In this document: piece after piece, positions 4,845 through 28,896 of the stretch
Position numbering within the stretch: position 1 is the first letter of the stretch
Layout of the letters: each line of letters opens with the position of its first letter
Assembly: GCA_016212795.1 (NCBI GenBank)
Contig: JACRDT010000004.1
Span: 23,812-87,811, forward strand
Length of the DNA: 64,000 bases
Direction: 5' to 3'
DNA from: Elusimicrobiota bacterium
GTDB taxonomy: Bacteria; Elusimicrobiota; Elusimicrobia; UBA1565; UBA9628
Made by a program: the position numbers and the translations under genes
The notes under the pieces: generated by a model
Database searches by the model: none
Told to the model about the DNA's origin: nothing
What the model saw: only the letters and a program-made list of their open reading frames with translations

Positions 4845-4855
4845 GGCGCGGCTCC

Positions 4856-8394: not shown

Positions 8395-10070
8395 GGGACC
8401 GTGAAGTTCCACGTTTCCACCGATTCCACCTTGTCGGGCGGGTCCGCGGCGAAGTGTTTGGCGCGGATTTCCACCGCGTGGGAGCTGCCGGGGGCGAAGG
8501 CCGAGGGAGGCGTGTAGGACACCGTGCCGTCGGAGGGAGCGTAAGCGCCTCCGACGGTGGATGCGTCCACCACGACGACGCCGTCGAGCGTCATCCGGAT
8601 GCTGGCGGGGTCGATGCCGCTCTGGTTGTCGGCGACGCGCGCGGAGATGACGGGCAGGTCCGACGATGCGGAGCCTCCGATGGGGTCCTTGTTGGACACG
8701 GCCGGGGCCGAGTTGTCGGTGTCCGGGAGCGCGAGGGTGAAGGTCCAGGACTGGGTGGCCTTGTAGCCGGCGTAGTCGCCGGCCTCCACGTAGGCCGTGT
8801 ACGCCCTGGAGCTCACGATCGGAACCGTGTTCGTGTTCGAATCGATCCAGACCGCGACGCCGGTGCCCGGGTCGTAGCGGTAGGCGACGGTGGCGCCGTC
8901 GATCTTGAACGTGATGACGTCCGGGCAGATGCCGCTGACGGCCGTGGTGGCCACCCCGACATCCGAGAGCGTCGCGCCGACGTAGGGTGCCAGCGTGCCG
9001 ATCGTGCCCGAGGGGATGGGGCCTGTGATGGCCGGGGGCTTGATGTCGAGCAGGATGGTGCGCTGGGTGATCGGGGAGGTGTAGCCGTCTTTCGCGGCCC
9101 GGGCCGAGAGCAGGTTGGCCCCTTCCACGAGGTTGGCCGTGACCGCGCCGGCGGCTATCGAGAAGGCCCCCGCGGCGTCGGCCCCGGAGCCGTCCAGGAT
9201 CCCGGAGGTTCCGACGTAGAGGTTCACGGCGGCCAGCGGGTCGGTCTCGCCGGATACGCTCAACGCGCTCGCTGCATCGGCCCGGGCCTGGACCACGTCC
9301 GAGGGATAAGGCTGGTCGATGACGAGGCCGCGGGAGCCCGCCAGCGCCGCGGTGTCGGCGCGGTACAGGTAGGCGTTGTTCGTCGGGGTCGAGACCTGGA
9401 GGAGCAGGACCGATTCGCTCGAGGGGTTGGGGGCGCCGGTGAACTGCTCGAGCGAGACGAGCTCCGTCTGCGAGCATGAGAGGCGTCCCTGCCTGTAGAC
9501 GTCGAAGGTCACCTTCTTGATGTGGGTGTCGGGCTGTTCGGCGACCGTGCGGCCTCCGGACGCGTAGGTGTCGTAGAAGTCGCCGTCCGCGTTCTGGTCG
9601 AAGTACCTGATGTTCGAGTCGTAGTCGTCGATGTCGTCGCCGTCGGCGTCCGTGAATGGCATGAGGTCCGAGGCCAGGCCGTTGGCGTTGGCGTCCGAGA
9701 GGTCGCGGCGCATAGGCGTGATCTGGATGCGGAAACGGTCGAACCTCGAGGACGACAGCGTGGCCTTGATCCCGTCCAGGGTCGCCTTGTAGGGATAGGC
9801 CGCCCACAACCCGTAGTTGGAGCTATTGGAGTCCGCGGCGAAGAGGGAGTAGAAATCGACGTTCTTGACCCTCGCGAAGCCCGTCTGGGCCATGCGGGCG
9901 CAGGTGGCCTGCTCCCTCGCCTTGAAGGCCACGACCGTCCCCTTCTGGATCAGCGAGAGGAGTGACAGGCCCACCGTGGTCATGATGACCATGGCCAGGA
10001 CCGTCTCCAGGAGCATGGAGCCTGCCCGGTCCTTGAGAAGCCCGACCACGCCGGAGCGCCGCCGCTTCAT
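8391..10070 (-). CDS. Pilin-leader protein with Ca-binding-like loops and tandem Ig-like domains
   Basis: RAG|SMLLETVLAMVIM leader; DANANG, DADGDD, DQNADGD; Ig-like repeats (DIKPPAIT, DNSAPAVS, DNQSGIDPASIRMTLDG). Confidence 0.75.
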   Translation of the reverse strand: MKRRRSGVVGLLKDRAGSMLLETVLAMVIMTTVGLSLLSLIQKGTVVAFKAREQATCARMAQTGFARVKNVDFYSLFAADSNSSNYGLWAAYPYKATLDGIKATLSSSRFDRFRIQITPMRRDLSDANANGLASDLMPFTDADGDDIDDYDSNIRYFDQNADGDFYDTYASGGRTVAEQPDTHIKKVTFDVYRQGRLSCSQTELVSLEQFTGAPNPSSESVLLLQVSTPTNNAYLYRADTAALAGSRGLVIDQPYPSDVVQARADAASALSVSGETDPLAAVNLYVGTSGILDGSGADAAGAFSIAAGAVTANLVEGANLLSARAAKDGYTSPITQRTILLDIKPPAITGPIPSGTIGTLAPYVGATLSDVGVATTAVSGICPDVITFKIDGATVAYRYDPGTGVAVWIDSNTNTVPIVSSRAYTAYVEAGDYAGYKATQSWTFTLALPDTDNSAPAVSNKDPIGGSASSDLPVISARVADNQSGIDPASIRMTLDGVVVVDASTVGGAYAPSDGTVSYTPPSAFAPGSSHAVEIRAKHFAADPPDKVESVETWNFTVP

Positions 10071-10118
10071 ACGCCATAGTGTGGCGCGAAAACGGGCCCG
10101 GCTCAACCAAACTTCCGA

Positions 10119-11321
10119 TTAACTCTCAGGAGCGGCCAGGGGCAGGGTGACGAGGACTTCGGCGCCGCGCATGGGTCCCTCGCTGCGGAACACGACGTCC
10201 CCGCCGTGCTTCTGCACGATCCAGCGGACCACGAAGAGGCCCAGGCCGTGGCCTCCCTTGCGGGCGCGGGTGGTGGCGAACGGCTCGAAGATTCTGGGGA
10301 GCATGTCGGCCGCGATGCCCACGCCCGTGTCGCGGACCGACACCTCGAGCATGCCTTGGCGGCGGCTCCCTCGGACCTCGAGGCGGCCGCCGAACGGCAT
10401 CGCGAGGATGGCGTTGTCGAGGATGTTGAGGAAGACCTGGGCCAGGTGCCGTTCGCTGCCGCGAACCGCGTCTCCCTCGGCAAGCTCGTCGCGGAATTCG
10501 ATGACGTCCGTGGCGATGCCGGGCGAGAGCTTCCGGTAGGTCTCCTCCACCAGCCGCCGAAGCGGCACCGGGGCCAGGAGGAACTCCGACTCGCCCGTGA
10601 AGTCGAGGAAGTCGCTCAGGATGGCCGAGGCCCGCTCGACCTCATCCTCGATGAGCCGCAGCCGGTCCGCCGACTCCCGCGGCCCTTCCCGGCCGCCGAG
10701 GTCCTTGCGGACGGCTTCGGCATTGAGGAGGATCGTGTTGAGAGGCGTCTTGAGCTCGTGGAGGACGGACGCCGCGATGCGCCCGGCCATGGAGAGCCGC
10801 TCGAGCCAGGTCAGCCGCTCCCGGTACCGGTCGTCGGCGGACTCCTGGACGATCCGCGTGCCGTCGACCACCGCCGCGGCGAAAAAGGTCGTGGCCAGGA
10901 TGAGGGACAGGCGCAGGAGGAACGTCGTGGCCTCCGCGCAGTCCAGCGAGGGCAACGACAGGGCGCCGTAGACCAGGCAAGCGACGCCGCCGACGATGAA
11001 GCTGTGGCCCACTTTGCCCGACAGGCATGAGGAGAGGATGACCAGGAAGTAGGCCACGTAGAAGTCGCCCGAGGCGCCATGGGTGGCGCCGAGGACCATG
11101 GTCGTCGCCGCGATGTCGACGAGGAAGGTCCACGATGCCAGGGCTTGCGAGAGCTTGCCGAGGCGGCTGCGCTGGAACAGGACCAGGCTGGCGACGGCGT
11201 AGCCCGATAGGACCACGGCCAGCCACGGGCCGGCGTGGCTGGCGGCCGGGCGGTAGACCGTCTGCAGGACCAGGATCCCGAGGAGGACCGAGCGGAACAG
11301 CAGGAAATGGTGGGCGTTCAA
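10119..11321 (-). CDS. Membrane sensor histidine kinase
   Basis: About 5 TM segments, H-box HELKTPL, N-box NILDNA, DTGVG, GHGLGL. TTG11321 start inferred because the longer ORF would overlap the divergent regulator. Confidence 0.9.
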   Translation of the reverse strand: MNAHHFLLFRSVLLGILVLQTVYRPAASHAGPWLAVVLSGYAVASLVLFQRSRLGKLSQALASWTFLVDIAATTMVLGATHGASGDFYVAYFLVILSSCLSGKVGHSFIVGGVACLVYGALSLPSLDCAEATTFLLRLSLILATTFFAAAVVDGTRIVQESADDRYRERLTWLERLSMAGRIAASVLHELKTPLNTILLNAEAVRKDLGGREGPRESADRLRLIEDEVERASAILSDFLDFTGESEFLLAPVPLRRLVEETYRKLSPGIATDVIEFRDELAEGDAVRGSERHLAQVFLNILDNAILAMPFGGRLEVRGSRRQGMLEVSVRDTGVGIAADMLPRIFEPFATTRARKGGHGLGLFVVRWIVQKHGGDVVFRSEGPMRGAEVLVTLPLAAPES

Positions 11322-11346: not shown

Positions 11347-12045
11347 ATGGAACCTAAAGTGCTCCTGGTCGATGACGACGCCGCTTTCCGCAAGACTCTC
11401 GCCGGGGTGCTGGGGGCCAACGGGTTCTCCACGCTCGAGGCGGCCAACGGTCTGAGCGGCATCCGCAAGGCCGCCGAGGAGAAGCCGGCCCTGGTCATCC
11501 TGGACCTGGTGATGCCGGACCTGCGGGGCACCGACGTGTGCAGGAAGCTCAAGTCCGGCCTGGCAACGGCCGGCATCCCCATCCTGATGCTCACGGGCAA
11601 CGACCGCGAGGGCCAGGAGGTCGCCTGCCTCGACATGGGCGCCGACGACTACTTGACCAAGCCGGTCCGCACCGAGCGGCTCCTGGCGCACTGCCGGGCC
11701 CTGCTGCGCCGGCTGCCCGCCGGGACGCCGCAGCGGCCGCCGATCGTCACCCTGGGCCGGTTGCGGCTGGACTACGAGCGCAAAGTGGTGGTCCTCGGCG
11801 CCAGGGACTACCCCCATCTCACGCCCAAGGAGTTCGAGCTCCTCTACTGCCTGGCCGGCTGCAGCCCGCACCCCCGCCAGCGCGCCGAGCTCTACCGCGA
11901 GGTCTGGGGCACGGACCCTCCCTCGGAGATGAGCCTGCGCACCGTGGAGGTGCACGTGCGCCGCATCCGGCTCAAGCTGGGGTGGAAGACCGGCCAGTGG
12001 CTCGCGGCCGTGTCCGGGCGGGGCTACTGCCTGGTCGCGGCCTGA
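11347..12045 (+). CDS. OmpR/PhoB-family response regulator
   Basis: LLVDDD, ILDLVMP, GADDYLTKP, LTPKEFELL, RTVEVHVRRIR, GRGY; GGAGG directly upstream. Confidence 0.95.
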   Translation: MEPKVLLVDDDAAFRKTLAGVLGANGFSTLEAANGLSGIRKAAEEKPALVILDLVMPDLRGTDVCRKLKSGLATAGIPILMLTGNDREGQEVACLDMGADDYLTKPVRTERLLAHCRALLRRLPAGTPQRPPIVTLGRLRLDYERKVVVLGARDYPHLTPKEFELLYCLAGCSPHPRQRAELYREVWGTDPPSEMSLRTVEVHVRRIRLKLGWKTGQWLAAVSGRGYCLVAA

Positions 12046-12052
12046 GCTCCGC

Positions 12053-12988
12053 TCAGGCCGCGATATCGAGGGTCGTGACCGCGAGCGTGGCGACGCCGGG
12101 CATGAGCTTGCCGTCCTCATCCTGGAGCTGGTCGCCGATCCAGGTCACGGGCTGGGGCTTGTGGCTGACCTCGAGGAAGCTCCGGCAGCCCTGGTCGTAG
12201 GCGGCCCAGACCGCGTCGAAGTGCTTCTCGAGGGTGAAGGGCTGGGCCGCGAGAAGCTCGGCGATCCTCTTGGGGTCGGTCTCCATGGCGCCCGACGTCC
12301 CCATGAAGACGGGGACCTTCGGGGGCGCGAGGCTGATGGAGGACAGGACCTTCTCCAGGGCCGGCCTGCAGGGGGCGAAGGCCGCGGTGTGGTAGGGGCC
12401 CTCGACCTTGAGCACCTTCACCTTGACGGGCCAGCCCTCGTCTTGGGCCTTGCGGGCCAGGGCCTCGATGTCGGCGAGCTTGCCGCCCGCGGTGCCCTTG
12501 CCGATGGCGTTGTGGAGGGCGAAGGAGACCCCGGGCCAGGCGTTGATGCGGTCCACGTAGTCGCCGATGAAGTCCGTCATCATGGCGGCCAGGCCCATGG
12601 GCTCCTTGAAGGTCCGGCAGACGTCGGAGAACGCCTGCGCGCGCGCGCGCATGAAGACGCCCGAGTCCTCCACGGACATGGCCCCGGCGGCCACCAGGGC
12701 CGCGGCGACGCCCATGGAGTGGCCGATGGCCCCGTCGAGCTCGAGGCCCGGGTGGGCGGCCTGGTAGGCGAAGAAGTGCCCTAGGTGGTGGGCGTGGATG
12801 GCCCGCTGGGCGTTGAGGGTGAGGGCCAGCTCGGCGTCGGGCATGGCGGTCGTGAGGTGCTCGAGGTCGGCCCCGAGGGAGGGCTTCAAGCGCTCGAGGA
12901 TCTCCCGGGCGGCCTTGTTCTTCCAGAGCTCGCGGCACATGCCCGTCTCTTGGACCGATTGGCCGGCGAAAATGACGCAATGTTTCAT
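12053..12988 (-). CDS. fabD: Malonyl-CoA:ACP transacylase
   Basis: IFAGQ, GHSMG nucleophile motif, GPYH; start MKHCV overlaps upstream stop. Confidence 0.85.
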   Translation of the reverse strand: MKHCVIFAGQSVQETGMCRELWKNKAAREILERLKPSLGADLEHLTTAMPDAELALTLNAQRAIHAHHLGHFFAYQAAHPGLELDGAIGHSMGVAAALVAAGAMSVEDSGVFMRARAQAFSDVCRTFKEPMGLAAMMTDFIGDYVDRINAWPGVSFALHNAIGKGTAGGKLADIEALARKAQDEGWPVKVKVLKVEGPYHTAAFAPCRPALEKVLSSISLAPPKVPVFMGTSGAMETDPKRIAELLAAQPFTLEKHFDAVWAAYDQGCRSFLEVSHKPQPVTWIGDQLQDEDGKLMPGVATLAVTTLDIAA

Positions 12989-14361
12989 GTCACCATGAAG
13001 CTGCACGCGGCAAACCGCCCCGAGTGCGAGATGGAGACCCCCCAGTCCTGGGGTTTGCCTTGGCGCACCACCCTCGGGATGTCGTCGATCTCCGTGAACG
13101 ACAGCGAGGCCGGAGACGGGATGTCGTCGGATGAGCCCGCGATGAGCTCGAGGCACAGCTCCCGCGCGAAATCCGAGGGGGAGCGGCCGGGAGGGACCGC
13201 CTCCACCCGCCAGAGCACGTCGCCCGGGGTCTGGCCGTCGCCGACGGCGCCGCCGCGCAGGACGGCGACGCAGTGGAGCTTGTCGCCGTCGTCGTCCGTG
13301 AAGGAGAGGCACAGCTCCAGCTGGCTGGGCAGGTGCCTGGCCTTGCCCTGGAAGAGCTCCACCTCGATGGTGGAGAACCCGCCGGGCAGCACCTTCACCC
13401 CGGCCTGGGCCAGGGCTTTGGAGGCGGCCTCCTTGGCCGCGTGGAAGCGCCAGAAGGTCCTGTAGACCTCGCGGGGCGGGCGGGAGCCGAGGTAGGCGGC
13501 CTCCTTGGCCGTGAGCAGCCGCTCGGCCCACTCGGGGTCGGCCTCGGCGAGGTCCGGACTGAAATGCTCGCGGGCCAGGGGGGACGCGAGGTCCACCACG
13601 TCGTTGCCGGAGCAGTTCTTGGCCATGGAGGAGGAGGCGAACCAGCGCTCCTGCAGCTCCCCGACCCTCCGGAAGAGCTCCTCGGCGACGGACCGCGGGG
13701 TGCTCTCCGGGCCGATCGCCGGGTCCCACAGCTCGGCGTAGATCCTGAAGGTCTCGCCGGCCGCCGGGTAGGCCGTGGTGCCGACCTGGGTCTCCCCGCG
13801 CATGTAGAGGCAGAGGAACTTCACATCGGGGACCCGCAGGGCCAGCCGGCCGAGGAAATCCTTGGGCCGGTGGGCCTCGAACCACCCGTTGCGGGCCCGG
13901 GTGGCCTCCGGGAAGACGAAGACCGTGCCCCCGGTCTCGAGGAGCCAGATGCATTTCTCGAAGGCCTTCTCGCGCCAGCGGACCGACCCTTCGTCATCCC
14001 CTCCCCTCAGGAAAGGGATGCAGCGGCAAAGGTACATGAAGGCCCGGATGAGGCGGCACTGCAGCCAGTTCCCCAGCTTGTAGTAGTTGGTGTACTCCGG
14101 GGTGGACCAGGGGATGCGGTTCCACCTCAGGGATTTGCTGAACGGGAAAATCGCGTAGTAGATCAGGAACGAGTCCCACAAGGTCAGGTGGTTGGCCGCC
14201 CAGATGAACGGCCCGTCGTGGGAGTCCAGCAGGGCCCAGACCTGCCGCCGGAAGGCGTCGACGTCCTTGAACGCGTAGCCCAGCCGCTTCTCGCCGGCGG
14301 CCCACAGGAAGAGGTGGACGAAGGGGGCGGCCGCGTTGGCCAGGCACCGCTGGAGCCGCAT
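12985..14361 (-). CDS. PlsC-type acyltransferase fused to 4'-phosphopantetheinyl transferase
   Basis: N-half NHLTLWD (HX4D) and FPEATR; C-half GNDVVDL, FHAAKEAASKA and SISHSG (PPTase motifs). Start could extend to 14478. Confidence 0.8.
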   Translation of the reverse strand: MRLQRCLANAAAPFVHLFLWAAGEKRLGYAFKDVDAFRRQVWALLDSHDGPFIWAANHLTLWDSFLIYYAIFPFSKSLRWNRIPWSTPEYTNYYKLGNWLQCRLIRAFMYLCRCIPFLRGGDDEGSVRWREKAFEKCIWLLETGGTVFVFPEATRARNGWFEAHRPKDFLGRLALRVPDVKFLCLYMRGETQVGTTAYPAAGETFRIYAELWDPAIGPESTPRSVAEELFRRVGELQERWFASSSMAKNCSGNDVVDLASPLAREHFSPDLAEADPEWAERLLTAKEAAYLGSRPPREVYRTFWRFHAAKEAASKALAQAGVKVLPGGFSTIEVELFQGKARHLPSQLELCLSFTDDDGDKLHCVAVLRGGAVGDGQTPGDVLWRVEAVPPGRSPSDFARELCLELIAGSSDDIPSPASLSFTEIDDIPRVVRQGKPQDWGVSISHSGRFAACSFMVT

Positions 14362-14424
14362 GCTCCGAGCCTCGCCCGCGGACAGCGCGGCCGTGCGCCC
14401 GGCCTGGGCAGTCAGGTCCAGGGG

Positions 14425-14454
14425 GCGGGAGGGCGCGGCGACGCGCCCTCCCGC
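14425..14454. terminator. 13-bp perfect stem-loop after the ACP-like gene (terminator or mRNA stabiliser)
   Basis: GCGGGAGGGCGCG-GCGA-CGCGCCCTCCCGC; no U-tract. Confidence 0.45.
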
Positions 14455-14526
14455 GCTGTGGTCCGGCGTTGGCGCCAAGCCGATGTCCTTGGGTCGGCCG
14501 GTCGCGACGCTAATAGGCCCTCATGG

Positions 14527-15453
14527 CTAACAGGCGACGGGGGTCGCGGCTCTCATGGCCTGCTGGCCGGCCTTCACGGACTCCGCCAGGACGGCGCGCG
14601 TCTCCTGGAACTTGGCCTCGTCGACCTTGGTCCGGCGCTCCGCGCCCCGGGCGGTCTCCTCCGAGACCACCAGCTTCTGGCGCATCATCCTGATGCGGGT
14701 CCTGACCTGGGCCTCCTCGGCGCGCAGGGAAGCCGCGCGGGAGGGGTCGTCCGTGGCCGTCACGCCCTTGAGCTTCTCGTTGATGAGCCGCAGCTCGGCG
14801 TCGAGGGAGTCGAAGGAGGCCTTGTCCGTCTGGAAGTCACCTTGCTTGGACGCGGCCAGGGCCGCGGCGTCGGCGAGCAGGGCCTCGTAGTCCTGCGTCT
14901 GCTGGACCAGGGACTGCAGGTTCGCCTTGGCCTCGGCCCGTTCGGCGGGGGCGAGCTTCTCGAGGCGGGCGAGGGTCTTGCGCAGGGCGTCGTTGAGCCG
15001 GTGGCCCGCGCCGACGGAGACGATCGTGGCGAAGGAGGCCACGCCCTCGAGGTACGCGGCGTCGGCCCGCATGTGCCCGAGCTCCATCAGCTTCTTGATG
15101 GTGAGGCCCGGCGTCGCCATGACCGAGTCCTGCCCCTCGAGGATGCGGAGCTTGCCGAGCTCCCCGTCGACGAGCGTGAACTCCGTCTCGCTGCCCTGGA
15201 CGGGGACCCTTGTCGTCTTCCTGGTCAGGAACTGGCGCTCGATGGACATGGTGATGTCGGCCAGGTTGGCGGACTCGATGCCCATCCCGACGATGTGCCC
15301 CAGGTAGGGCGTGTTCCCGTCGGCCTTGGTCCAGTTGGCCTCGTTGGTGGCGTATTTCTTGACGCCCGCGATGATGCGCTTCTCCGCGTCCTCCGGGGTG
15401 ATGGTGTTCAGGTCCACGGCCTCGACGACGGCTTCCTTGCGCTTGAATGCCAT
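14527..15453 (-). CDS. Acyl-carrier-protein domain fused to long C-terminal coiled coil
   Basis: GGGAGGT SD then MAFKRK; MGIESANLADITMSIERQF aligns with ACP helix II (G.DS...E/D..M..E..F); heptad-rich helical C-terminus; lies between fabF and the PPTase. Confidence 0.7.
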   Translation of the reverse strand: MAFKRKEAVVEAVDLNTITPEDAEKRIIAGVKKYATNEANWTKADGNTPYLGHIVGMGIESANLADITMSIERQFLTRKTTRVPVQGSETEFTLVDGELGKLRILEGQDSVMATPGLTIKKLMELGHMRADAAYLEGVASFATIVSVGAGHRLNDALRKTLARLEKLAPAERAEAKANLQSLVQQTQDYEALLADAAALAASKQGDFQTDKASFDSLDAELRLINEKLKGVTATDDPSRAASLRAEEAQVRTRIRMMRQKLVVSEETARGAERRTKVDEAKFQETRAVLAESVKAGQQAMRAATPVAC

Positions 15454-15461
15454 TTCTTGCG

Positions 15462-16772
15462 TTACCTCCCGTCCCAGTGTTTGAACAGCAGACAACCATT
15501 GACGTCGCCAAAACCAAAAGAAGCCTTGATCACAAGTTCAAGCGGTCGCTCGACGCATGCGCGGGGGATGCTCGACGCGACCGCTTGAATGCCCGGGTGG
15601 GTCTCCTCGCAGTTGATGGAGGGGTGGACGTAGCCCAAGTCGAGCTGGTCGATGGCCGCCACCGCCTCGATGGCGCCCGCGGCGCCCAGGGCGTGGCCGA
15701 TCATGGATTTCGTGGATTGGATGAGCGGGAACCGCTCGGGGGGCAGCTCCAGCGCCTTCATCCAGCTCGAGACCTCGGCCGGGTCGGCCCCCGTCGACGT
15801 CAGGTGGCCGTTGATGAGCCCGATGGAGGTGGGCTGCACGCCGGCGTCCTTGACGGTCCTGCGGACGCACCGGACCACGCCCTCGGGGTTGGGGAAGGTC
15901 ATGGAGCCTCCGTCGCGCTGGCCCCCGGAGTTGCAGTAGCCCGAGAGGAGCTCCGCGAGGATCGGGGCGCCGCGCCGGCGGGCCGACTCCAGCGTCTCGA
16001 TGCGCAGCACGCCGGCGCCGGAGCCCGGCACGAACCCGCAGGCGTTGGCGGCCATGGGCTGGGAGCCCTTCTCGGGCATCTCGTTGTACTTCGAGCACAG
16101 GACGTCGCGCATCGCGTCGAACCCTGCCCAGATCCCGTAGTGGGAGCCTTCGGCCCCGCCCACGTACATGGCGTCGGCGTAGCCCAGCTGGATCATGTTG
16201 AACCCGGCGAAGATCGCCTCGGTCCCGGTGTTGCAGGCCGAGCTGTTGCTGCTCGTGGGGCCGCCGAGGCCGAGGAACCGGCCGACCACGACGCTCGCCG
16301 AGCTCCCCATGATCTTGGGGACGATGTCGGCGCCCATGGGCGCCGGCCCGCGGCCGGGCTCGGCCTGGTCCGCGTCGGCCAGGGCCGGGCCCATCTCCTC
16401 GAGGATCGCGTCCATGCCGCCGATGCCGCAGCCCAGCATCACGCCGGTCTGCCAGTCCACGGAGCCGTCCTTGATGTCCTTGGAGAGGTCCACCTCGATG
16501 CCCGACGAGCGCGCGCACTCGACGGCGGCCAGGGCGGCGTAGACCTGGCACTCGTTGAGCTTGCGGTACTCGGGGCCCGGGATGACCTTGAGGATGTCCT
16601 CCTCGCAGAGGTCCGGGATGCCGCCGATCTGGCAGGAGAAATTGAGCTTCTGGAGGCTCTCGTGGCGCTGGATGCCGGAGCGCCCGGCCTTCAAGGCCTC
16701 CCTGAACGCGGGCACGCCGACGCCGTTGGGCGCCACCACCCCCATCCCGGTCACGACCACTCTTTTCCTCAT
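15462..16772 (-). CDS. fabF: Beta-ketoacyl-ACP synthase II
   Basis: RVVVTGMG, SSACNTG (catalytic Cys), NGHLTST, KSMIGH, SFGFG. Confidence 0.92.
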   Translation of the reverse strand: MRKRVVVTGMGVVAPNGVGVPAFREALKAGRSGIQRHESLQKLNFSCQIGGIPDLCEEDILKVIPGPEYRKLNECQVYAALAAVECARSSGIEVDLSKDIKDGSVDWQTGVMLGCGIGGMDAILEEMGPALADADQAEPGRGPAPMGADIVPKIMGSSASVVVGRFLGLGGPTSSNSSACNTGTEAIFAGFNMIQLGYADAMYVGGAEGSHYGIWAGFDAMRDVLCSKYNEMPEKGSQPMAANACGFVPGSGAGVLRIETLESARRRGAPILAELLSGYCNSGGQRDGGSMTFPNPEGVVRCVRRTVKDAGVQPTSIGLINGHLTSTGADPAEVSSWMKALELPPERFPLIQSTKSMIGHALGAAGAIEAVAAIDQLDLGYVHPSINCEETHPGIQAVASSIPRACVERPLELVIKASFGFGDVNGCLLFKHWDGR

Positions 16773-17257
16773 GGCGTCCCATTCTCCCGCGAGTCCCTGG
16801 GGACCCACATGCCGGCGGTGAAGCCCTCGAAGATGAGCTCTCCGTCCTGGGGGCCGCCGTCGAAGCGTATCTCGACGCAGGCCGCGAGCTTGCGGTTCCT
16901 GAAGTAGCCGTCCTCGCCGAACTCCGCCGTCACCCGGACCTTGTCGCCCGGCCGCACCACCTTCTTGAAGGCGCCCTGCTCGATCTGGGTGAAGTAGCCG
17001 ACCATGCCCTTGACCTCCTCGGTCGAGGTCTCCCGGGCCATGAAGTAGATCGCCCACGCCACGTTGCCGACCTGCGCGGACATCTCGACGAGCTTCACGC
17101 CGGGCACGACCGGGTTGCCCGGGAAGTGCCCGGCGCAGTCCTCTTCCTTCCAGGTGTAGGTGCCGACGATGTGGTCGTCGTCCAGCTCGACGATCTCGTC
17201 GATGAAGCGCATGGGCCGCTGCTGGGGGACCAGGGCCAGGACCTCGGCTGGGGTCAT
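16769..17257 (-). CDS. fabZ: 3-hydroxyacyl-ACP dehydratase
   Basis: PQQRPMRFID, GHFPGNPVVPGVKLVE..AQ, FKKVVRPGD. Confidence 0.9.
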   Translation of the reverse strand: MTPAEVLALVPQQRPMRFIDEIVELDDDHIVGTYTWKEEDCAGHFPGNPVVPGVKLVEMSAQVGNVAWAIYFMARETSTEEVKGMVGYFTQIEQGAFKKVVRPGDKVRVTAEFGEDGYFRNRKLAACVEIRFDGGPQDGELIFEGFTAGMWVPRDSRENGTP

Positions 17258-17264
17258 GTCGTGA

Positions 17265-17283
17265 GCCTCCCCCGCGGGGAGGC
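17265..17283. repeat. Core of the palindromic REP-like family
   Basis: GCCTCCCCCGCGGGGAGGC, same core as the copies at 18059 and ~35520. Confidence 0.6.
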
Positions 17284-17309
17284 GAGCATTGAGGGGGACG
17301 ATCGCCGTG

Positions 17310-18032
17310 TCATAAAAGCATCCCTCCATCAACGGGCAACACCGCCCCGTTGATGTACTGGTTCTCGACGAGGTGCCAGACGGCCTCGGCCACGGCCTCG
17401 GGCGCCCCGAACTCCCCGAGCGCGATCATGGAGCGGATCTTCTCCTTCACCTCGGCGGGGATGCTGGCGGTCATGGGGGTCATGATGAACCCCGGCGCGA
17501 CCGCGTTGACCCGCACCCCCCTGGGGCCGAGCTCCATGGCGAACTGCCTGGTCAGGGCCTCGATGCCGGCCTTGCTCACGCGGTAGAACGCCGACCCGGT
17601 CAGGGCGTGGCGCGCCAGCACGGAGCTGATGTTGACGATGACCCCTCCCCCCGAGGCCATCATCTCCTTGGCGAAATGCCTCATGAGGAAGGCCGGGGCC
17701 TTGAGGTTGAGGCCCATGAGCGCCTCGAAGGAGGATTCCTGGATCGACAGCAAGGGCTCGTGGGGCTTGTCGATGCCGGCGTTGTTGACCAGCACCGAGG
17801 GGGTCCCTTGCAGCAGCACCGCCTCCAGGAGGGCGTCGCGCCCCGCCTGGGAGGCGAGGTCGGCGGCGACGGCGAAAGACCCCGGGATGCCCTCGGCGAG
17901 CTCCGAGACGGCAGCCTCGTTGACGTCGCAGAGGGCGAGCTTGAGCTCCCCGCCGGACTTCTCGTGGATCATGAGCGAGACGGCCTTGCCGATGCCGCCG
18001 CCCGCGCCGGTGACGACTGCGATTTCTTTCAT
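17310..18032 (-). CDS. fabG: 3-oxoacyl-ACP reductase (SDR)
   Basis: TGAGGGIG, NNAG, YRVSK, NAVAPGFI.T.MT, VDGG. Confidence 0.85.
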   Translation of the reverse strand: MKEIAVVTGAGGGIGKAVSLMIHEKSGGELKLALCDVNEAAVSELAEGIPGSFAVAADLASQAGRDALLEAVLLQGTPSVLVNNAGIDKPHEPLLSIQESSFEALMGLNLKAPAFLMRHFAKEMMASGGGVIVNISSVLARHALTGSAFYRVSKAGIEALTRQFAMELGPRGVRVNAVAPGFIMTPMTASIPAEVKEKIRSMIALGEFGAPEAVAEAVWHLVENQYINGAVLPVDGGMLL

Positions 18033-18090
18033 AAAACGGATTTTAGCCCCCCTCGGCTACTTGCCTCCCCCGCGGGGGGAGGCAAGTGAC
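18028..18090. repeat. Palindromic REP-like element
   Basis: ACTTGCCTCCCCC-GCG-GGGGGAGGCAAGT perfect stem preceded by AAAACGG..AGCCCCCC.CGGCT leader shared with 35493 and 31832. Confidence 0.7.
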
Positions 18091-18101
18091 ATGGAGGAAA
18101 G

Positions 18102-19115
18102 TTAGTTCACCTCCATGTACCCGCCGCCCCAGGCCAGGCCCGCGCCCAGGACCGCGTAGACGAGCTTGTCGCCCCGGTGGAGGCGGTCGATGTTCTGCGC
18201 GATGGCCGACGGGCAGCCCGCCGCCGCGATGTTGCCCTGCTCGTGCACGTTGCGGAGGTGCTTGTCCTCGGGGAGGTTCAGGTGCTGCAGGACGGAGGTC
18301 TGCATCACGTAGTTGGCCTGGTGGGACACCGTGTAGACCTCGTCGGCGTAGAGCTCCTTGGCGCCCGCGATGTGCTCGTACATCTCGCAGGTCTTGCGGA
18401 TGGAGAACTCGCGGACCATCTTGCCGTCCTGCGCGACGTGGCCGCCGGCGTCGACGAGGATGCTCTCGGCCCCCTCGGGGTTGGTCTCGAAGATCATGGG
18501 CTCGACCGTGAGCCTTCCCTGGTGGCGCTTGGAGAGGACCTGCGCGCAGGCCCCGTCGCCGAAGATGTAGCCGTCGATGCAGTGCGGGGAGTAGTCCATG
18601 CGCACCGTGTAGGCCGCCGTCTGCACGCACAGGACGAACTCGGGCATCCTCTCGGGCATCATGTCGCCGAGGGCCTGCATGTGGCGGGCGAAGCTCGAGC
18701 AGGCGCAGTTCATGTCGCAGTGCGGGCCGGAGCCCACGCCTAGCCCCTTGGCGACGAGGCTGGCCGTGGAGGGCACGATGTCGAAGGCGGTGTCGCAGTT
18801 GACGAGCACCATGCCGACCTTGTCCGGCGTGACGCCGGCCGCCTTGAGGGCCTTCTGGGCGGCCTTGATGCCCATGGTGACGGGCGTCTCGCCGTGCGAC
18901 CGGGCGTGGATCATGCCCTGGTACGGGTGCTGGTTCTTGGTCTTGGCGATGTATTCCTTCGAGAGGACGGAGTACCTGCGGTAGATCCCCAGGCGCGAGT
19001 CCACCCAATCCGGGCCTCGCTCGAGCCCGACTTCCTTATGGAGGAAGTCGTTGGTGATCTCCGTGGCCGGCAGGTAGCAGCCCATCCCAAGAATGCCCAG
19101 CTTCATTCGGTTCAT
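18102..19115 (-). CDS. fabH: Beta-ketoacyl-ACP synthase III-like
   Basis: NCACSSF (Cys), FGDGA, HQAN, GNIAAA, GAGLAWG. Confidence 0.85.
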   Translation of the reverse strand: MNRMKLGILGMGCYLPATEITNDFLHKEVGLERGPDWVDSRLGIYRRYSVLSKEYIAKTKNQHPYQGMIHARSHGETPVTMGIKAAQKALKAAGVTPDKVGMVLVNCDTAFDIVPSTASLVAKGLGVGSGPHCDMNCACSSFARHMQALGDMMPERMPEFVLCVQTAAYTVRMDYSPHCIDGYIFGDGACAQVLSKRHQGRLTVEPMIFETNPEGAESILVDAGGHVAQDGKMVREFSIRKTCEMYEHIAGAKELYADEVYTVSHQANYVMQTSVLQHLNLPEDKHLRNVHEQGNIAAAGCPSAIAQNIDRLHRGDKLVYAVLGAGLAWGGGYMEVN

Positions 19116-20098
19116 CCTCCCGATATGGCCTCGCCGCCGTCCACGCGTATGACGGCGCCGCTGACCCAGTCGAATCCCGGCTGGCAGATGGCGCAGACGA
19201 CCTCGGCCACGTCCTCCGGGGTGGTGAGCCGATGGGACGGATTGCGCATCCGGGCCTCGGCCTTCATCAAGTCGAAATTGGGGATGGCGTTGCCGGCCGG
19301 GGTGTCCGTGATGCCGGGCTGCAGGACGAAGCACCGGACCCCGTAGGGTCCCATCTCCACGGCCATGGCCCGGCAGGACGCCTCCAGCCCGCACTTGGCC
19401 GCGGCCACGGCCGCGTAGCCCCGCCAGGAGACCTCGTTGCCTTCCGAGGTCAGCCCGACCAGCCGCGCGGACTTGGCGAGCAGGCCTTCCTTCAGCAGCT
19501 CCCTTCCCCATAGGAGGTAGTCGTAGCCCATCATCCAGATCGTGCGCTGGAGGTCGGCCTCGCTGAGGAGCTCTTCGCGGTAGGCGATGCGGCTGTCGGC
19601 CAGCGTGTGGAGGGCGTCGCACCCGCCCTCGTGGAAGGCGGCGTTCGCGGCCTTGCGCAGGACCTCGGGCGAGGCCGAGACGCCAAGCTGGCGGAGCGTC
19701 TCGGAGAGCCCCTGGAAGGCCTTGCCGCGGAAATCGGGGGATTTATCCTCGATGATCAGCTTGCAGGCTCCAGCCGCGATGGAGTGCATGAACAGGTGCA
19801 CCCGGGCGGGGCCGGCGCGGCTGGCGATGCTCTCGAAGACCGCTCCGCGCTCGTCCTCATCGAAGAGGTTGGCATTGTGGGTGACCAGGGCGACGCCTTG
19901 CCGGCGGATCTCCTCGAAATGGGGCTTGATGAGGGTCTCGACCGTCCCTTCGGTGTCCTTGTGGGCTATGATGAGGTTCAGCCCGGCCCTGGCCAGCCGC
20001 TTGGCCGTGGCCAGCCCGAAGCCGGATGACCCGCCAAGGATGACACCCCACAACCCCTTGTTGAGGAACGGTTTCTGTTCGGTCGAGACCTCTGTCAT
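19112..20098 (-). CDS. Enoyl-ACP reductase, FabL/FabI-like SDR with internal insertion
   Basis: LGGSSGFG, HSIA, LTSEG, YAAVAAAK (YX6K), RLTTPEDVA, VDGG. Confidence 0.8.
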   Translation of the reverse strand: MTEVSTEQKPFLNKGLWGVILGGSSGFGLATAKRLARAGLNLIIAHKDTEGTVETLIKPHFEEIRRQGVALVTHNANLFDEDERGAVFESIASRAGPARVHLFMHSIAAGACKLIIEDKSPDFRGKAFQGLSETLRQLGVSASPEVLRKAANAAFHEGGCDALHTLADSRIAYREELLSEADLQRTIWMMGYDYLLWGRELLKEGLLAKSARLVGLTSEGNEVSWRGYAAVAAAKCGLEASCRAMAVEMGPYGVRCFVLQPGITDTPAGNAIPNFDLMKAEARMRNPSHRLTTPEDVAEVVCAICQPGFDWVSGAVIRVDGGEAISGG

Positions 20099-20112
20099 GT
20101 CGGTAACGAGGT

Positions 20113-20126
20113 GGTATTATAGCACA
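20113..20126 (-). promoter_or_regulatory. Extended -10 promoter for the FAS-like operon
   Basis: Minus strand TGCTATAAT about 18 nt upstream of ATG20098. Confidence 0.55.
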
Positions 20127-20300
20127 TGACCGGCATGGCGCGCAATTGACCAAAATCAAATCAGAATGTCTGACACCATTAGTTAAGTACTGCGCATCCG
20201 TGTCGGATATAAAGTCTCATGGCCTCCACCGCTGGCGTCTCAGGGTTGGCCACCCTGGCACCAATTTGTTAAATACTGTGGATGACGTGTTGAAGAAGAG

Positions 20301-20343
20301 CTGAGGGCCGGGGGATATCCTGTGGATAACTCCCGGCCCTCAG
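20301..20343 (-). terminator. Intrinsic terminator of the subtilase gene
   Basis: CTGAGGGCCGGG...CCCGGCCCTCAG stem followed on the minus strand by CTCTTCTTC. Confidence 0.6.
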
Positions 20344-20361
20344 AGTGCCAACGGGGGCGGA

Positions 20362-21573
20362 TTACTTGATCTTCGCCGCGTTGATCATGCCCTTGCCCTG
20401 CTGGGAGGCGGTGAGGCCAGGCAGCTTGGTCGCCGCCCTACCCAGGGCTTTACGGATCTCCTGGCCTCTATAGCCCAAGCCGGCGGCCAGGGCGGCCAGG
20501 CCCGTGACATGGGGGGATGCCATCGAGGTCCCGTCCAGGTTGTCGTAGCCTCCGCCCATGTAGGTCGACTTGATGTCCGCGCCCGGGGCGATGAACTCGA
20601 TCTGGGGGCCCCGGCTGGAGAACGAGGTGATCTTGTCGGCGCTGTCCGAGGCGGACACCGCCGCCACCTCCGGATAGGCCGCCGGAAAGCCGACCGCGCC
20701 GCCGTTGTTGCCCGCGGCCGCGACGATGAGCAGGCCGGCGTCCGCCGCGGCCTTGACCGCGTCCGCGAGGGCTTCCGAGCCTTCCTCGGCGCCGAGGCTC
20801 ATGTTGGCCACCTGCATCTTGTTCTTGGCGGCCCACTCGATGCCCGCGATGATCGTGGAGTAGTCGCCGCCGCCCTCGGCGTCCAGTACCTTGACCCCGT
20901 AGAGCCGGGCCTTGGGAGCGATCCCGACCACCCCCTGGCCGTCCTTGACCGCGGCGATGGTCCCGGCCACATGGGTGCCGTGGCCGTTGTCATCCTTATA
21001 GTTCTTGGGGGTCTGGGGATTGACCACGTTGACTCCGCCGGCCACGTTGGCTTTCAGGTCGGGGTGGGTGTAGTCGATGCCCGTGTCGATGATCGCCACC
21101 TTGACCCTGTCGCCCTGGGTCCGGCTCCAGGCGCCGGCCGCGTTGACTCGCTGGATGCCCCAGGGTTGCTCGGGGTCGTCTTCCTTGGTCCCAGGCTGGG
21201 GCGCCGCCGCGCTCCTGTAGGCGCCGACGACCTGCTGGATGTCGGGCAGCTTGAACTCGCCGAGGGTGGACTTGAGCCAGTTGATCCTCTTGTCCGCCTC
21301 GACCCGCTTGACCTCGGCCAGCGCCGTCAACTCGGTATCGGCGGATTTCTGCCGCTCCGCCATGACGTCGATGACGATGGCGTTGATGAGCTCGAGCTCG
21401 CGCACGACCTGGCAGCCGAGCTTCTCGGCCGCGCCGCGGCACTGGCTCATCGCCACGTCCGCCTTGCAGGACACGATCCTGCGCACCGTCGGGCCATAGG
21501 GGCAGGCCGCGTCGGCTCCGGCGGCGAGGAACAGCTGCGCGGCGACGACCAACAGCAATCTGACGGACATCAT
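20362..21573 (-). CDS. Secreted S8 subtilisin-like serine protease with propeptide
   Basis: Signal peptide; AIIDTG, HGTHVAG, GTSMASPHV catalytic triad; GAGGAGG SD. Confidence 0.95.
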   Translation of the reverse strand: MMSVRLLLVVAAQLFLAAGADAACPYGPTVRRIVSCKADVAMSQCRGAAEKLGCQVVRELELINAIVIDVMAERQKSADTELTALAEVKRVEADKRINWLKSTLGEFKLPDIQQVVGAYRSAAAPQPGTKEDDPEQPWGIQRVNAAGAWSRTQGDRVKVAIIDTGIDYTHPDLKANVAGGVNVVNPQTPKNYKDDNGHGTHVAGTIAAVKDGQGVVGIAPKARLYGVKVLDAEGGGDYSTIIAGIEWAAKNKMQVANMSLGAEEGSEALADAVKAAADAGLLIVAAAGNNGGAVGFPAAYPEVAAVSASDSADKITSFSSRGPQIEFIAPGADIKSTYMGGGYDNLDGTSMASPHVTGLAALAAGLGYRGQEIRKALGRAATKLPGLTASQQGKGMINAAKIK

Positions 21574-21721
21574 CGAGAGGATACCTCCTCGGCGGGGATT
21601 CATATGGGTAAGTGTACTAGGTCTTTCGGTCCCGAAAAGGGCCGGAGGGCCCAGGGTGGGATAGGACCAAAGACCCAGCGCCGGCAAGGGGCGCGGCGCC
21701 GGGCCTTCGCGCGGCGGCAGG

Positions 21722-22867
<1,146 letters not shown>

Positions 22868-23006
22868 ATAGGCTCTCCTGAGGGGTTGAGCCTTCCCACG
22901 AAGTCTTATTATAAGCATACCCCCGCCGGGGGGATAATCAAGCCCGCCATGGTCAGGGAATGTCAGCGGGTTGTTTTCGGCGCCGGATATTTCCTAGAGT
23001 TGACTG

Positions 23007-23684
23007 ATGGCGCGCCTGCTGATCATCGAGGACGACGGCGCTCTCATGGAGCTGATGAGCGTCACCTTCTTCAAAGAAGGGTACGAGGCGCACTACGCCT
23101 TCAACGGGAAGGAGGGCTACGAGAAGGCTCTCGCCCTCCATCCGGACGTGATCATCCTCGACCTCATGCTCCCCGTCATGAGCGGCATCGACGTCCTCAA
23201 GAAGGTCTCGGTCCACCCCATCGCGCGCTCCATCCCGGTCATCGTCGTGACGGGCTACGGCGACAGGCCCGAGGCCCTCGAGGAGACGATCCGCTCCCAC
23301 GGCGCCGTCGACTATCTGCGCAAGCCCTTCGAGCTGGGCGTCCTCGTGCGGACCGTGGCCCGGGTCCTGGGCAGGGCCCCGGTCAAGACGGAGAAGACGG
23401 GCAGGCTCTCCAAGGGCGCCGTCGGCCTCGATGTCCGCTACAGGACCGTCTGGATCGACGACAAGCTCGTCGCCACGCTCTCGCCCCAGAAGGCCGCCGT
23501 GCTCAAGCTCCTCCTGGCGGCGCCGGGGCCCGTCAAGAAGGAGAGCCTCCTGGCCGAGGTGTGGGGCAACACGGGGCAGGTGAGCGCCCTCGAGAAGACC
23601 ATCCAGCGTCTGCGGGAGGACCTGGGTCCAGCGGAAGGCCGCCGCATCCAGACCGCGGCGGACGGCTACGAATTGATCGGCTAG
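23007..23684 (+). CDS. OmpR-like response regulator
   Basis: LLIIEDD, ILDLMLP, YLRKPF, winged-helix ending IQT..DGY. Confidence 0.9.
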   Translation: MARLLIIEDDGALMELMSVTFFKEGYEAHYAFNGKEGYEKALALHPDVIILDLMLPVMSGIDVLKKVSVHPIARSIPVIVVTGYGDRPEALEETIRSHGAVDYLRKPFELGVLVRTVARVLGRAPVKTEKTGRLSKGAVGLDVRYRTVWIDDKLVATLSPQKAAVLKLLLAAPGPVKKESLLAEVWGNTGQVSALEKTIQRLREDLGPAEGRRIQTAADGYELIG

Positions 23685-24680
23685 ATGGGCATCGGCTTGC
23701 TCTTGCTGCGGCTGGCCCTCGCGTCCTGGGCCATGGACCCGGAGCCTCCCTACGGCGTCCTGCTGCTGGCGCCGGGCGGGGAGAAGATGCGCAAGGAGTC
23801 CGCCGCCGCGGCGCAGGCCCTGGGGCCCGGCGTCCCGGCGGCGACCGTGCACGGGACGGCCGACACCGCCGAGCTGCAGGCCGCCGTCGACAAGCTGGCG
23901 GCCGGACGCGCGCGCAAGGTCGTGGTCGTGCCCTTGATGCTCTCCTCTTCGTTCGAGCCGCTCGAATGGGCGAAGGCTTCCCTGGGCCTCAAGGGCGCCC
24001 GTTCGGCCGGGGACTGCAAGGGCGCGAGCTGCGGCGCCGCCGCCGTGAGGACGGGCGTGCCGTTGTCCGTGGTGCCGGCCCTCGACGACCATCCTTTCGC
24101 CGTCCAGATCCTGCTCGAGCGGCTCAAGGCCGTCAGCCGGGACTCGTCCCGGGAGTCGGTCGTCCTGGTCGGCTTCGCTCCGGCGCAGGACAGGGGACGC
24201 AAAGCCGTGGAGCGCTCCGTGAAGGCCGCGGCCCACGCGATCCGCAAGAACACGGCCTTCAAGGCCGTCCGCTCGGCCGTCCTGCGGGAACGCGGCGCCC
24301 CCGCGGAGAAAGCCAGGGCCGCCGGGGCCTTGCGCGAGGCGGTCGGACGGGCGACGTCGGACGGGAAGGTCCTGGTCGTCGCGTACGTCCTGGCCTGGGA
24401 GGGGGAGGAGGACGCCGTGGCCCGGGCGCTCAAGGGCCTCTCCTATGTGTGGGACCCCAGGCCCTTCCTGCCGCATCCTCTGGTCGATTCTTGGGTCAAG
24501 GAATCGGCCGGCATGGGCGCGCGGATGGAGGACATGAGGCGGTTCGCCGCCGCGGATCCCCGCCGGCTCGACGGCCTCAAGTCGCTGCTGCGCAGGGACG
24601 CCGGGGCGGCCGCGCCGCCTCCGCAGACACCGGGCGGCGGCCCGGCCTGCGGCGCCGCCGAGGCTTGCGCGCCCCGCTGA
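23685..24680 (+). CDS. Exported CbiX/sirohydrochlorin-chelatase-like protein lacking the metal-ligand His residues
   Basis: Signal peptide; GVLLLAPGG, KVVVVPLML, PALDDHP, ESVVLVG, PHP..W resemble CbiX, but the His positions are substituted. Confidence 0.6.
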   Translation: MGIGLLLLRLALASWAMDPEPPYGVLLLAPGGEKMRKESAAAAQALGPGVPAATVHGTADTAELQAAVDKLAAGRARKVVVVPLMLSSSFEPLEWAKASLGLKGARSAGDCKGASCGAAAVRTGVPLSVVPALDDHPFAVQILLERLKAVSRDSSRESVVLVGFAPAQDRGRKAVERSVKAAAHAIRKNTAFKAVRSAVLRERGAPAEKARAAGALREAVGRATSDGKVLVVAYVLAWEGEEDAVARALKGLSYVWDPRPFLPHPLVDSWVKESAGMGARMEDMRRFAAADPRRLDGLKSLLRRDAGAAAPPPQTPGGGPACGAAEACAPR

Positions 24681-24681
24681 T

Positions 24682-25311: not shown

Positions 25312-25329
25312 TTTTTGCTAGACTCACGC

Positions 25330-25521
25330 ATGGCCCAGGCTTGCTGCGTCGATTGCCGTTGGTGCGAGCTGAGGATCAGCCTCGACGCCGGCTCCAATTA
25401 CTACTGCGTGGTCCTGGGGGAGTCCCTCAAAGGCGACGTCCTGTGGCGGGCGGCCTGCAAGGATTACTCGCTCCCTGCCTCTCCGGCCCAGAAGCCCGCC
25501 GAGCGCCCGCCCACGCGCTAA
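25330..25521 (+). CDS. Small Cys-rich putative metal-binding protein
   Basis: MAQACCVDCRWCE..YYC..ACKDY; TGCTAGACT -10 box 5 nt upstream. Confidence 0.6.
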   Translation: MAQACCVDCRWCELRISLDAGSNYYCVVLGESLKGDVLWRAACKDYSLPASPAQKPAERPPTR

Positions 25522-27691: not shown

Positions 27692-27773
27692 GGGATAGGG
27701 ACGCTTCGCGTCAACGCGGGCGCGATTATAGTATAGCTTGCATTTCGATTCAAGGTAGCGTTAAATATGTCCC

Positions 27774-28889: not shown

Positions 28890-28896
28890 CGGGTCG

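Follow-up and report, generated by a model that had tools for sequence, protein, structure and literature searches.

A complete type II fatty acid synthesis operon with its own carrier-like protein in a family of Elusimicrobiota

Introduction

The acyl carrier protein (ACP) AcpP and the core Fab enzymes of type II fatty acid synthesis (FAS) belong to the most conserved components of bacterial metabolism, and they are targets of antibiotics. In E. coli and B. subtilis they are encoded by plsX-fabH-fabD-fabG-acpP-fabF, together with fabZ, fabI or fabL, and acpS. Also described is the rhizobial acpXL-fabZXL-fabF2XL-fabF1XL-lpxXL cluster, which makes the very-long-chain fatty acid of lipid A. Here we report on an operon of eight collinear genes in a 64,000-nucleotide stretch of an Elusimicrobiota genome (contig JACRDT010000004.1, positions 23,812–87,811), hereafter the window, to which all coordinates given without a contig or locus name refer. 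The genes lie at 12053–20098, all on the minus strand, in the order ER-FabH-FabG-FabZ-FabF-ACPcc-PlsC::PPTase-FabD, where ER is an enoyl-ACP reductase, PPTase a phosphopantetheinyl transferase and ACPcc a carrier-like protein of an unnamed family. An earlier reading made from the sequence alone (the sequence-only reading) had proposed these eight genes in one direction as a self-contained pathway, and the set is confirmed.

On balance, we read this locus as a complete type II FAS operon with its own unusual carrier module that serves as the main FAS of its family and is not an add-on. If this is true, the family-wide swap of FabF, FabD and FabH for a divergent operon would mean that this core is replaceable.

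Six divergent enzymes cover every step of type II FAS

Each of the six discrete activities has a Pfam domain match: β-ketoacyl-ACP synthase (KAS) III, KAS I/II, malonyl-CoA:ACP transacylase, ketoreductase, dehydratase and ER. They provide every step of FAS II, as claimed by the sequence-only reading, and the operon adds to them a carrier-like protein as well as activating and acyl-transferring domains. The translations carry the motifs that we take to be catalytic in these enzymes, namely ACNTG (Cys), GHLTSTG (His) and GHALGAAG (His) in FabF, CACSSF, SHQAN and GNIAAAG (Cys, His, Asn) in FabH, GHSMG in FabD, HFPGNPVVPGV in FabZ, YRVSK in FabG, and YAAVAAAK (Y-x6-K) in the ER.

It is also evident that none of the six reaches a curated equivalog score in NCBIfam. 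The ER scores 94.1 bits with FabL NF005975, its best NCBIfam match (cut-off 328); FabH scores 163.2 bits with NF006829 (cut-off 249) and 133.1 bits with TIGR00747 (cut-off 292.1); FabG scores 176.8 bits with TIGR01830 (cut-off 297.75), FabZ 67.7 bits with TIGR01750 (cut-off 155.15) and FabF 275.8 bits with TIGR03150 (cut-off 493.75). FabD, which had already been called divergent, reaches 91.8 bits with TIGR00128 (cut-off 260.9). Among solved structures, the ER matches the NADPH enoyl-ACP reductase 3oic best, and the alignment falls into two blocks (ER residues 18–117 with chain residues 7–100, and 211–324 with 134–247). Between the blocks, 93 ER residues face 33 in 3oic, so the internal insertion that had been suspected in this enzyme is real and amounts to about 60 amino acids (aa).

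The ketoacyl synthase (KS) of the operon is closest to the FabF-type families. Besides its FabF score, it gives 271.7 bits with PRK07314 and 238.6 bits with FabB, compared with 46.4 bits for PfaA and 65.4 bits for type I polyketide synthases; no named secondary-lipid KS family in NCBIfam outscores FabF. A KS phylogeny that includes FabF, which the sequence-only reading had recommended, places all operon-type KSs in one clade with a very long stem (2.63) and a support of 100 in the Shimodaira-Hasegawa-like approximate likelihood-ratio test (SH-aLRT). This clade stands apart from canonical FabF and from a second, FabF-like KS type found on contig C12 of the host genome (see below).

Canonical genes in the host genome

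The host genome (4.18 Mb in 50 contigs, 89.9% complete) contains no match over the NCBIfam cut-offs to canonical FabH, FabD or FabF, and the second canonical fab/acpP set that the sequence-only reading suggested looking for was not found. What is present is plsX-fabG-acpP on contig C25 (6174–8472), followed by an acyl-CoA dehydrogenase gene; the FabG beside AcpP is near-canonical (296.1 bits). As had been noted, plsX and rpmF are absent from the operon locus. A canonical FabZ (179.2 bits) is encoded in an lpxD-lpxC-fabZ-lpxA-lpxI cluster on contig C47. The operon itself supplies the best FabH match of the genome, its sole discrete FabD-like open reading frame (ORF) and, with the ER, its sole PF12241 match. 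Among the other reductase types, the host genome has no FabK match, no FabV match except the operon ER, and no convincing FabI (best 65 bits, cut-off 337), a negative that is weak because the FabI model NF005717 is narrow and gave no match over its cut-off in any of 14 control genomes. We further noticed an adjacent FabH/thiolase-like pair on contig C5 (91454–93395; TIGR00747, 91.9 and 28.4 bits).

These gene contents bear on an alternative that we regard as unlikely, namely that the operon is purely a dedicated secondary-lipid pathway, which would build a special chain on ACPcc for a special lipid, while bulk fatty acids would come from loci on contigs C6 or C12 or from the unassembled ~10% of the genome. 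The additional FabG and FabZ copies just described are in favor of such a pathway, and so are the four PlsC-family genes outside the operon (PF01553, 75–95.7 bits), which are stronger matches than the operon member, the fifth of the genome. Contig C6 carries megasynthases resembling polyunsaturated fatty acid (PUFA) synthases at ~15000–33700, with ORFs of 2087, 2328 and 1175 aa that contain KS, acyltransferase (AT), tandem ACP and FabH-like parts; this Pfa-like synthase has its own PPTase just upstream, another point for the dedicated pathway. The megasynthase AT domain is present in most larger genomes of the family and missing from the small-genome genera. On contig C12 (~94877–99565; locus L001, 4878–9566), one long ORF encodes a FabF-like KS of 346–406 bits, under the cut-off, together with a short KS-like tail. 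An ACP-like gene belongs to the same cluster, which continues with a PIM/LpxL-like acyltransferase and a B12-binding radical-SAM protein that weakly matches TIGR04072 ('lipid biosynthesis B12-binding/radical SAM'). C12-like KS genes are also found in some other genomes of the family, including genus g2.

Distribution of the operon in the family and the phylum

The distribution of the genes among related genomes argues against a purely dedicated pathway. Canonical FabF was found in 112 of the 201 genomes sampled from the phylum. In the 78 genomes of the host's own family, it occurs in 8 of the 9 genomes of genus g2 and in none of the remaining 69, and no FabD is over the cut-off in any of the 78; the sole discrete FabD of the family, g2 included, is of the operon type. 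ACPcc is present in 66 of the 78 genomes and in 17 of 18 genera, and in none of the nine g2 genomes. It was found in 5 of the 201 phylum genomes, all belonging to one GTDB family, and the operon is thus not a housekeeping FAS conserved throughout the phylum. Canonical AcpP is kept in 69 of the 78 family genomes and in 45 of the 47 high-quality ones, and ACPcc therefore occurs alongside AcpP in the family and not in its place.

Since canonical FabH, FabD and FabF are absent from the family apart from the FabF of g2, and the operon is its sole source of these activities and of the ER, the operon enzymes would have to serve AcpP too. LpxA and LpxD require hydroxyacyl-AcpP. Because AcpP and the lipid A genes (lpxD-lpxC-fabZ-lpxA in the host genome) need acyl-AcpP, the operon would also have to feed housekeeping synthesis, which is difficult to reconcile with a pathway confined to a special lipid. 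The same applies to the genomes of genus g4 (2.0–2.2 Mb, 94–97% complete), where the operon-type KS is the sole KS at E ≤ 1e-10 and the operon ER is present; these genomes have no megasynthase AT domain and yet keep AcpP. Genus g2 has a contiguous operon-type FabH-(FabG)-FabD (55–70% identity) and lacks the ER, FabZ, FabF, ACPcc and fusion of the operon. As g2 uses operon-type FabH and FabD with a canonical FabF and without ACPcc, these enzymes evidently work with AcpP. In the FabD tree, g2 (SH-aLRT 99) falls inside the operon clade of the family (98), within a 12-row subclade (94), and this placement suggests that g2 lost the ACPcc module secondarily.

Several observations weigh against the operon as the main FAS of the family. 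The host genome is incomplete, so canonical genes could sit in its missing part, and the C6 megasynthases or the FabF-like KS/ACP pair on C12 could make the bulk fatty acids. The complementarity of FabF and ACPcc rests on one clade and is one event, not many. Furthermore, four of five genomes from other families of the same order (G072, G078, G092, G144 and G182) have no discrete FabF at E ≤ 1e-60, and this again favors the dedicated pathway. FabD-like domains in these five genomes are found only within ORFs of 2778–2967 aa, and fatty acid synthesis in such relatives may depend on megasynthases alone. Canonical FabF is also missing from two other families of the same class (0 of 58 genomes in f4 and 0 of 11 in f5). 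A last point of this kind, the company of the operon in distant genomes, is taken up in the next section.

Distant loci and the possible ancestry of the operon

A scan of 185,579 species genomes yielded 69 loci, in which the order ER-FabH-FabG-FabZ-FabF-ACPcc-fusion-FabD is nearly universal, and the synteny proposed for inspection by the sequence-only reading is therefore nearly constant. In several family members, FabH is present in the operon as two tandem copies (L039, 5135–7136; also L073, L077, L081, L094 and L116), and the doubling may point to different primers.

In four loci (L050, L051, L058 and L061), the PPTase is a stand-alone gene. All four genomes concerned (G271–G274) also hold a canonical FabF of 610–670 bits, so the operon is accessory there, as a dedicated pathway predicts and in opposition to a main FAS. 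The dedicated pathway beside a housekeeping FAS that the sequence-only reading had put forward thus fits these four distant genomes and is not supported for the host genome, where canonical FabH, FabD and FabF were not found. The neighbors of the distant loci are also in favor of a dedicated function. A NAD_binding_4 thioester/fatty-acyl reductase follows the operon FabD in L050 and L051 (11455–13935 in both), together with a PF11266 aldehyde-decarbonylase-like (Ald_deCOase) gene and an uncharacterized conserved ORF, and a thioester reductase lies near the operon in L061 (11488–13518). Upstream in L050 are genes for an AMP-binding enzyme, a methyltransferase, a LolA-like protein and a MacB/FtsX permease. 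Judged from these gene contents, L050, L051 and L061 look like a non-cyanobacterial pathway to fatty aldehyde, alkane or alcohol on the ACPcc carrier. In L058, two PPTase-type genes were found (4228–5457 and 9827–10477). One of them is a stand-alone PPTase after ACPcc, and the other, encoded separately on the opposite strand next to FabF, is PlsC::PPTase-like over its full length (34% identity).

The depositor labels of these four genomes (Planctomycetota, Acidobacteriota or 'uncultured bacterium'; Planctomycetota for the L058 genome) are unverified. In the KS tree, their canonical FabFs, except that of G273, group with those of g2, so some of the four may be relatives of the family. Judged from the distant genomes that carry canonical FabF, the operon probably began as an accessory FAS, and canonical FabH, FabD and FabF were lost afterwards in the Elusimicrobiota family; the order of these losses is our inference.

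ACPcc and its pairing with the PlsC::PPTase fusion

ACPcc had been labeled an 'ACP-coiled-coil' protein by the sequence-only reading, and this label holds at the level of the motif only: the conserved-serine motif and a helical C-terminal half are present, and a match to a PP-binding domain is not. The N-terminal domain (residues ~1–140) is extremely conserved, with GMGIESxNLADITMSIERQFLT essentially invariant, and is followed by a C-terminal half (~141–302) that forms a helical bundle. None of the 245 relatives of ACPcc has a name or a Pfam domain, and a profile search with the N-terminal domain found 23 proteins among 1.84 billion representatives.

The fusion combines a PlsC domain (~13672–14361) and an AcpS-type PPTase (~12988–13629). 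Both are above their Pfam cut-offs (PF01553, 35 bits with a cut-off of 23; PF01648, 29.1 bits with a cut-off of 25), which substantiates the earlier claim of a lipid acyltransferase and an activator in one ORF. Among 32 sequences, the PlsC blocks NHLTLxD (H58/D63) and FPEAxR (F148, P151, E152, A153 and R155) show no variation at the residues given. On the PPTase side, the motifs GNDxxDL, KEAxxKA and SHSG are kept, with G252, D254, D257, K310, E311, K315, S445 and H446 invariant. We take these motifs to be of the HX4D/FPEGTR type in PlsC and to bind Mg and CoA in the PPTase. The fusion matches no NCBIfam family at E ≤ 1e-5, and hence no housekeeping-PlsC equivalog; its nearest solved chains are, weakly, holo-ACP synthases (AcpS; 3qmn at E 0.0014), and the PPT chains of yeast FAS (2was) are among its weak Protein Data Bank (PDB) matches. 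The same fusion is found in 160 relatives. Neither the fusion nor the carrier-like family was found in Pfam, NCBIfam or PDB sequences, and a literature search at the level of titles and abstracts retrieved no description of the operon, fusion or carrier; within these sources, the statement that the fusions are unmatched by characterized systems stands.

We considered it improbable that ACPcc is no carrier at all. In that case it would be a structural or regulatory subunit on the fusion, such as a membrane tether or gate, AcpP would be the sole carrier, and the PPTase would act on AcpP or be a docking module. The conserved serine argues against this. Ser61, within GMGIES, does not vary: all 32 sequences compared have it, as do all 7 distant ones, down to the most distant member, with 28% identity to the reference member P0251. 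It belongs to a motif of the (D/E)S type where a helix begins, and residues 62–74 form a helix directly after it in the structural model. The gene pairing argues in the same direction. A PPTase-bearing gene with intact motifs directly follows ACPcc in 64 of the 64 loci with room for it, being PlsC-fused in 60 and stand-alone in four, and the release-type neighbor varies (a stand-alone PPTase plus thioester reductase in 3 of the 4 distant loci, a fused PlsC in the family) while ACPcc and the PPTase stay. In addition, the host genome has five PPTase genes, among them a separate AcpS-like gene that would be available for AcpP.

A local hhalign comparison of 131 family N-terminal domains with 11 ACPs gave a probability of 32.6%, an E of 4.7e-4 and a score of 25.7, in a register that sets Ser61 on the phosphopantetheine serine of the ACPs. 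None of 60 column-shuffled ACP profiles reached 25.7, and the reversed profile scored 16.7. With its richer profiles, this comparison supersedes an earlier single-sequence one against AcpP (probability 1%, E 0.053). The alignment is suggestive of a kinship between ACPcc and ACPs, not proof of it.

Other results speak against a carrier and for a subunit of another kind. ACPcc has no PP-binding (PF00550) match at E ≤ 0.01 and is not among the five PF00550 matches of the host genome, and 0 of 7 family members match PF00550 at E ≤ 10. The hhalign probability is just the value given above, and one shuffle reached 24.0. The AlphaFold model of ACPcc (predicted local distance difference test, pLDDT, 82.8; predicted template modeling score, pTM, 0.79) consists of helix 20–34, a loop, helix 62–74, a β-hairpin (75–101) and helix 115–124, packed on the C-terminal helical bundle, and this helix-loop-helix and hairpin arrangement, as modeled, does not look like the four-helix fold of ACPs. 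The loop with the serine (55–61) has a pLDDT below 50, and the N-terminal domain folds poorly alone (pLDDT 54). Similarly, fold searches with the full model returned generic helical bundles only, none at E ≤ 0.001 with Foldseek and with Z of 9.5–11.7 in a wide VIA-align search, which is the range expected for helical proteins; the best ESM Atlas score for residues 1–140 was 0.87, below the lead level of 0.9, and no match below E 0.065 came from a profile search of ACPcc against PDB sequences. AcpP, as described above, is kept family-wide. During these searches, P0261 (687 aa, with 6 stretches) was considered as a tandem-ACP protein and rejected as a low-complexity repeat.

We also modeled the complex of ACPcc and the fusion. 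The score was 0.76, and the best of 3 controls reached 0.00. Of 157 solved complexes, 116 attained this mark, as did 2 of 215 mismatched pairs; since we supplied the alignments ourselves, these counts apply only roughly here. At least 81% of contacts are shared between the runs, and the partner pLDDT is at least 78. The modeled interface contains ACPcc residues 59 and 61–69 as well as residue 61 (HX4D motif) and residues 307–314 (KE motif) of the fusion. The contacts of lowest error are between the ACPcc helical bundle (153–185) and PPTase residues 419–437, and an interface of the stable-subunit type such as this one would also suit a non-carrier subunit.

A proposed scheme for the operon as the main FAS

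Starting from the observed gene content, motifs, pairing of ACPcc with the PPTase, complex model that passed its controls and genome distribution, we infer the following scheme for the operon as the main FAS. The PPTase domain of the fusion would transfer phosphopantetheine onto Ser61 of ACPcc. On this arm, FabD, FabH, FabF, FabG, FabZ and the FabL-like reductase would build a saturated acyl chain. The PlsC-like domain, presumably bound stably to ACPcc through the helical bundle of the latter, would then hand the chain over at the membrane, where a lyso-lipid or a similar molecule would accept it.

More tentatively, and with clearly less confidence than in the role of the operon, ACPcc might represent a new class of acyl carrier, a subunit of 300 residues in which an ACP-derived serine loop is permanently docked, by way of the helical bundle, on its own PPTase-acyltransferase, forming a machine that channels chains from FAS directly to lipid. 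The module would have come from a mobile accessory pathway and displaced canonical FabH, FabD and FabF in one family, a rare case of a secondary system taking over core fatty acid synthesis. If so, a carrier-like protein that is invisible to profiles and tied to a PPTase-acyltransferase would be a new carrier architecture, and the operon offers a testable model of acyl channeling from synthesis to membrane lipid. Automated annotation labels ACPcc 'hypothetical', so the lipid metabolism of these groundwater organisms will be misread in pathway reconstructions.

Organization and flanks of the operon

The window has a G+C content of ~70%, and raw ORF lists are crowded as a result. The eight genes (Table 1) were located through Pfam and NCBIfam scans of candidate frames, with starts taken from stop-to-stop translations. 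An alternative start is possible at 17332 for FabZ, and the database gene call of the fusion starts at 14478, giving 497 aa. The genes had been described as mostly overlapping, which is overstated: overlaps of 4 bp are found at three of the seven junctions (ER/FabH, FabZ/FabF and fusion/FabD), and the remaining four are gaps of 8–165 bp. A promoter and terminator scan of 11800–20500 gave one promoter-like and two terminator-like sites, not above shuffles. The sequencing-run listing has seven DNA rows from groundwater metagenomes of two studies, with no RNA row among them.

Table 1. Genes of the operon and their coordinates in the window
Product	Length (aa)	Coordinates	Strand	Domain or family match
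ER, FabL-like short-chain dehydrogenase/reductase (SDR)-type enoyl-ACP reductase	328	19112–20098	−	adh_short_C2, 121.1 bits
FabH-like KAS III	337	18102–19115	−	ACP_syn_III_C, 56.2 bits; ACP_syn_III, 29.8 bits
FabG-like 3-oxoacyl-ACP reductase	240	17310–18032	−	adh_short_C2, 169.8 bits
FabZ-like 3-hydroxyacyl-ACP dehydratase	162	16769–17257	−	Pfam FabA, 40.3 bits
FabF-like KAS I/II	436	15462–16772	−	ketoacyl-synt, 94 bits; ketoacyl-synt_C, 77.1 bits
ACPcc, unnamed family	308	14527–15453	−	no Pfam or NCBIfam family
PlsC::PPTase fusion	458	12985–14361	−	PF01553 and PF01648, single ORF
FabD-like malonyl-CoA:ACP transacylase	311	12053–12988	−	Acyl_transf_1, 73.8 bits

Genes on both sides of the operon are unrelated to lipid synthesis. 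Downstream are a response regulator and a histidine kinase. Directly upstream, on the minus strand at 20362–22918, a subtilase (Peptidase_S8, 198.7 bits) adjoins a MopE-repeat protein with three MopE-type Cu-binding motifs; no link of this pair to the operon was seen.

Comparison with known systems

The operon shares its six discrete activities and their motifs with canonical type II FAS, and no solved structure matches its ER better than FabL (3oic) of that system. It differs from canonical type II FAS in enzymes that are all below the NCBIfam cut-offs, in the insert of the ER, in the long separate branch of its KS, and in the location of plsX, fabG and acpP elsewhere in the genome. Furthermore, the 308-aa ACPcc stands in place of the small AcpP, and the PPTase shares one protein with a PlsC-like acyltransferase.

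The rhizobial AcpXL cluster is similar in that it pairs a dedicated carrier with a KS and a dehydratase of its own, and in that its acyltransferase moves the chain onto a lipid. However, AcpXL is a small ACP of the usual kind, the acyltransferase belongs to the LpxL family and not to the PlsC family, and the cluster is not known to include FabH, FabD, an ER or a PPTase and supplements a canonical FAS. The mycobacterial fabD-acpM-kasA-kasB locus is likewise a second type II system with its own FabD and KS and a carrier longer than AcpP, but ACP models recognize the C-terminally extended AcpM and do not recognize ACPcc, and mycobacterial FAS-II is not known to have a PPTase or acyltransferase fusion and elongates the products of FAS-I.

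Built-in activation and offloading are known from large synthases: a PPT domain is part of the synthase in fungal type I FAS, and an offloading acylglycerolphosphate acyltransferase (AGPAT) domain is fused to the synthase in myxobacterial PUFA synthases. In contrast, the PPTase and the acyltransferase are here fused to each other, and the synthase is dissociated. The cyanobacterial alkane pathway, with an acyl-ACP reductase (AAR) and an aldehyde-deformylating oxygenase, has counterparts in the NAD_binding_4 reductase and PF11266 genes of L050 and L051; those genes are absent from the window and the family, the reductase belongs to a family other than that of cyanobacterial AAR, and the likeness bears only on the likely ancestry of the operon. 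Taken together, the operon is a variant of type II FAS with features that are new relative to the known systems.

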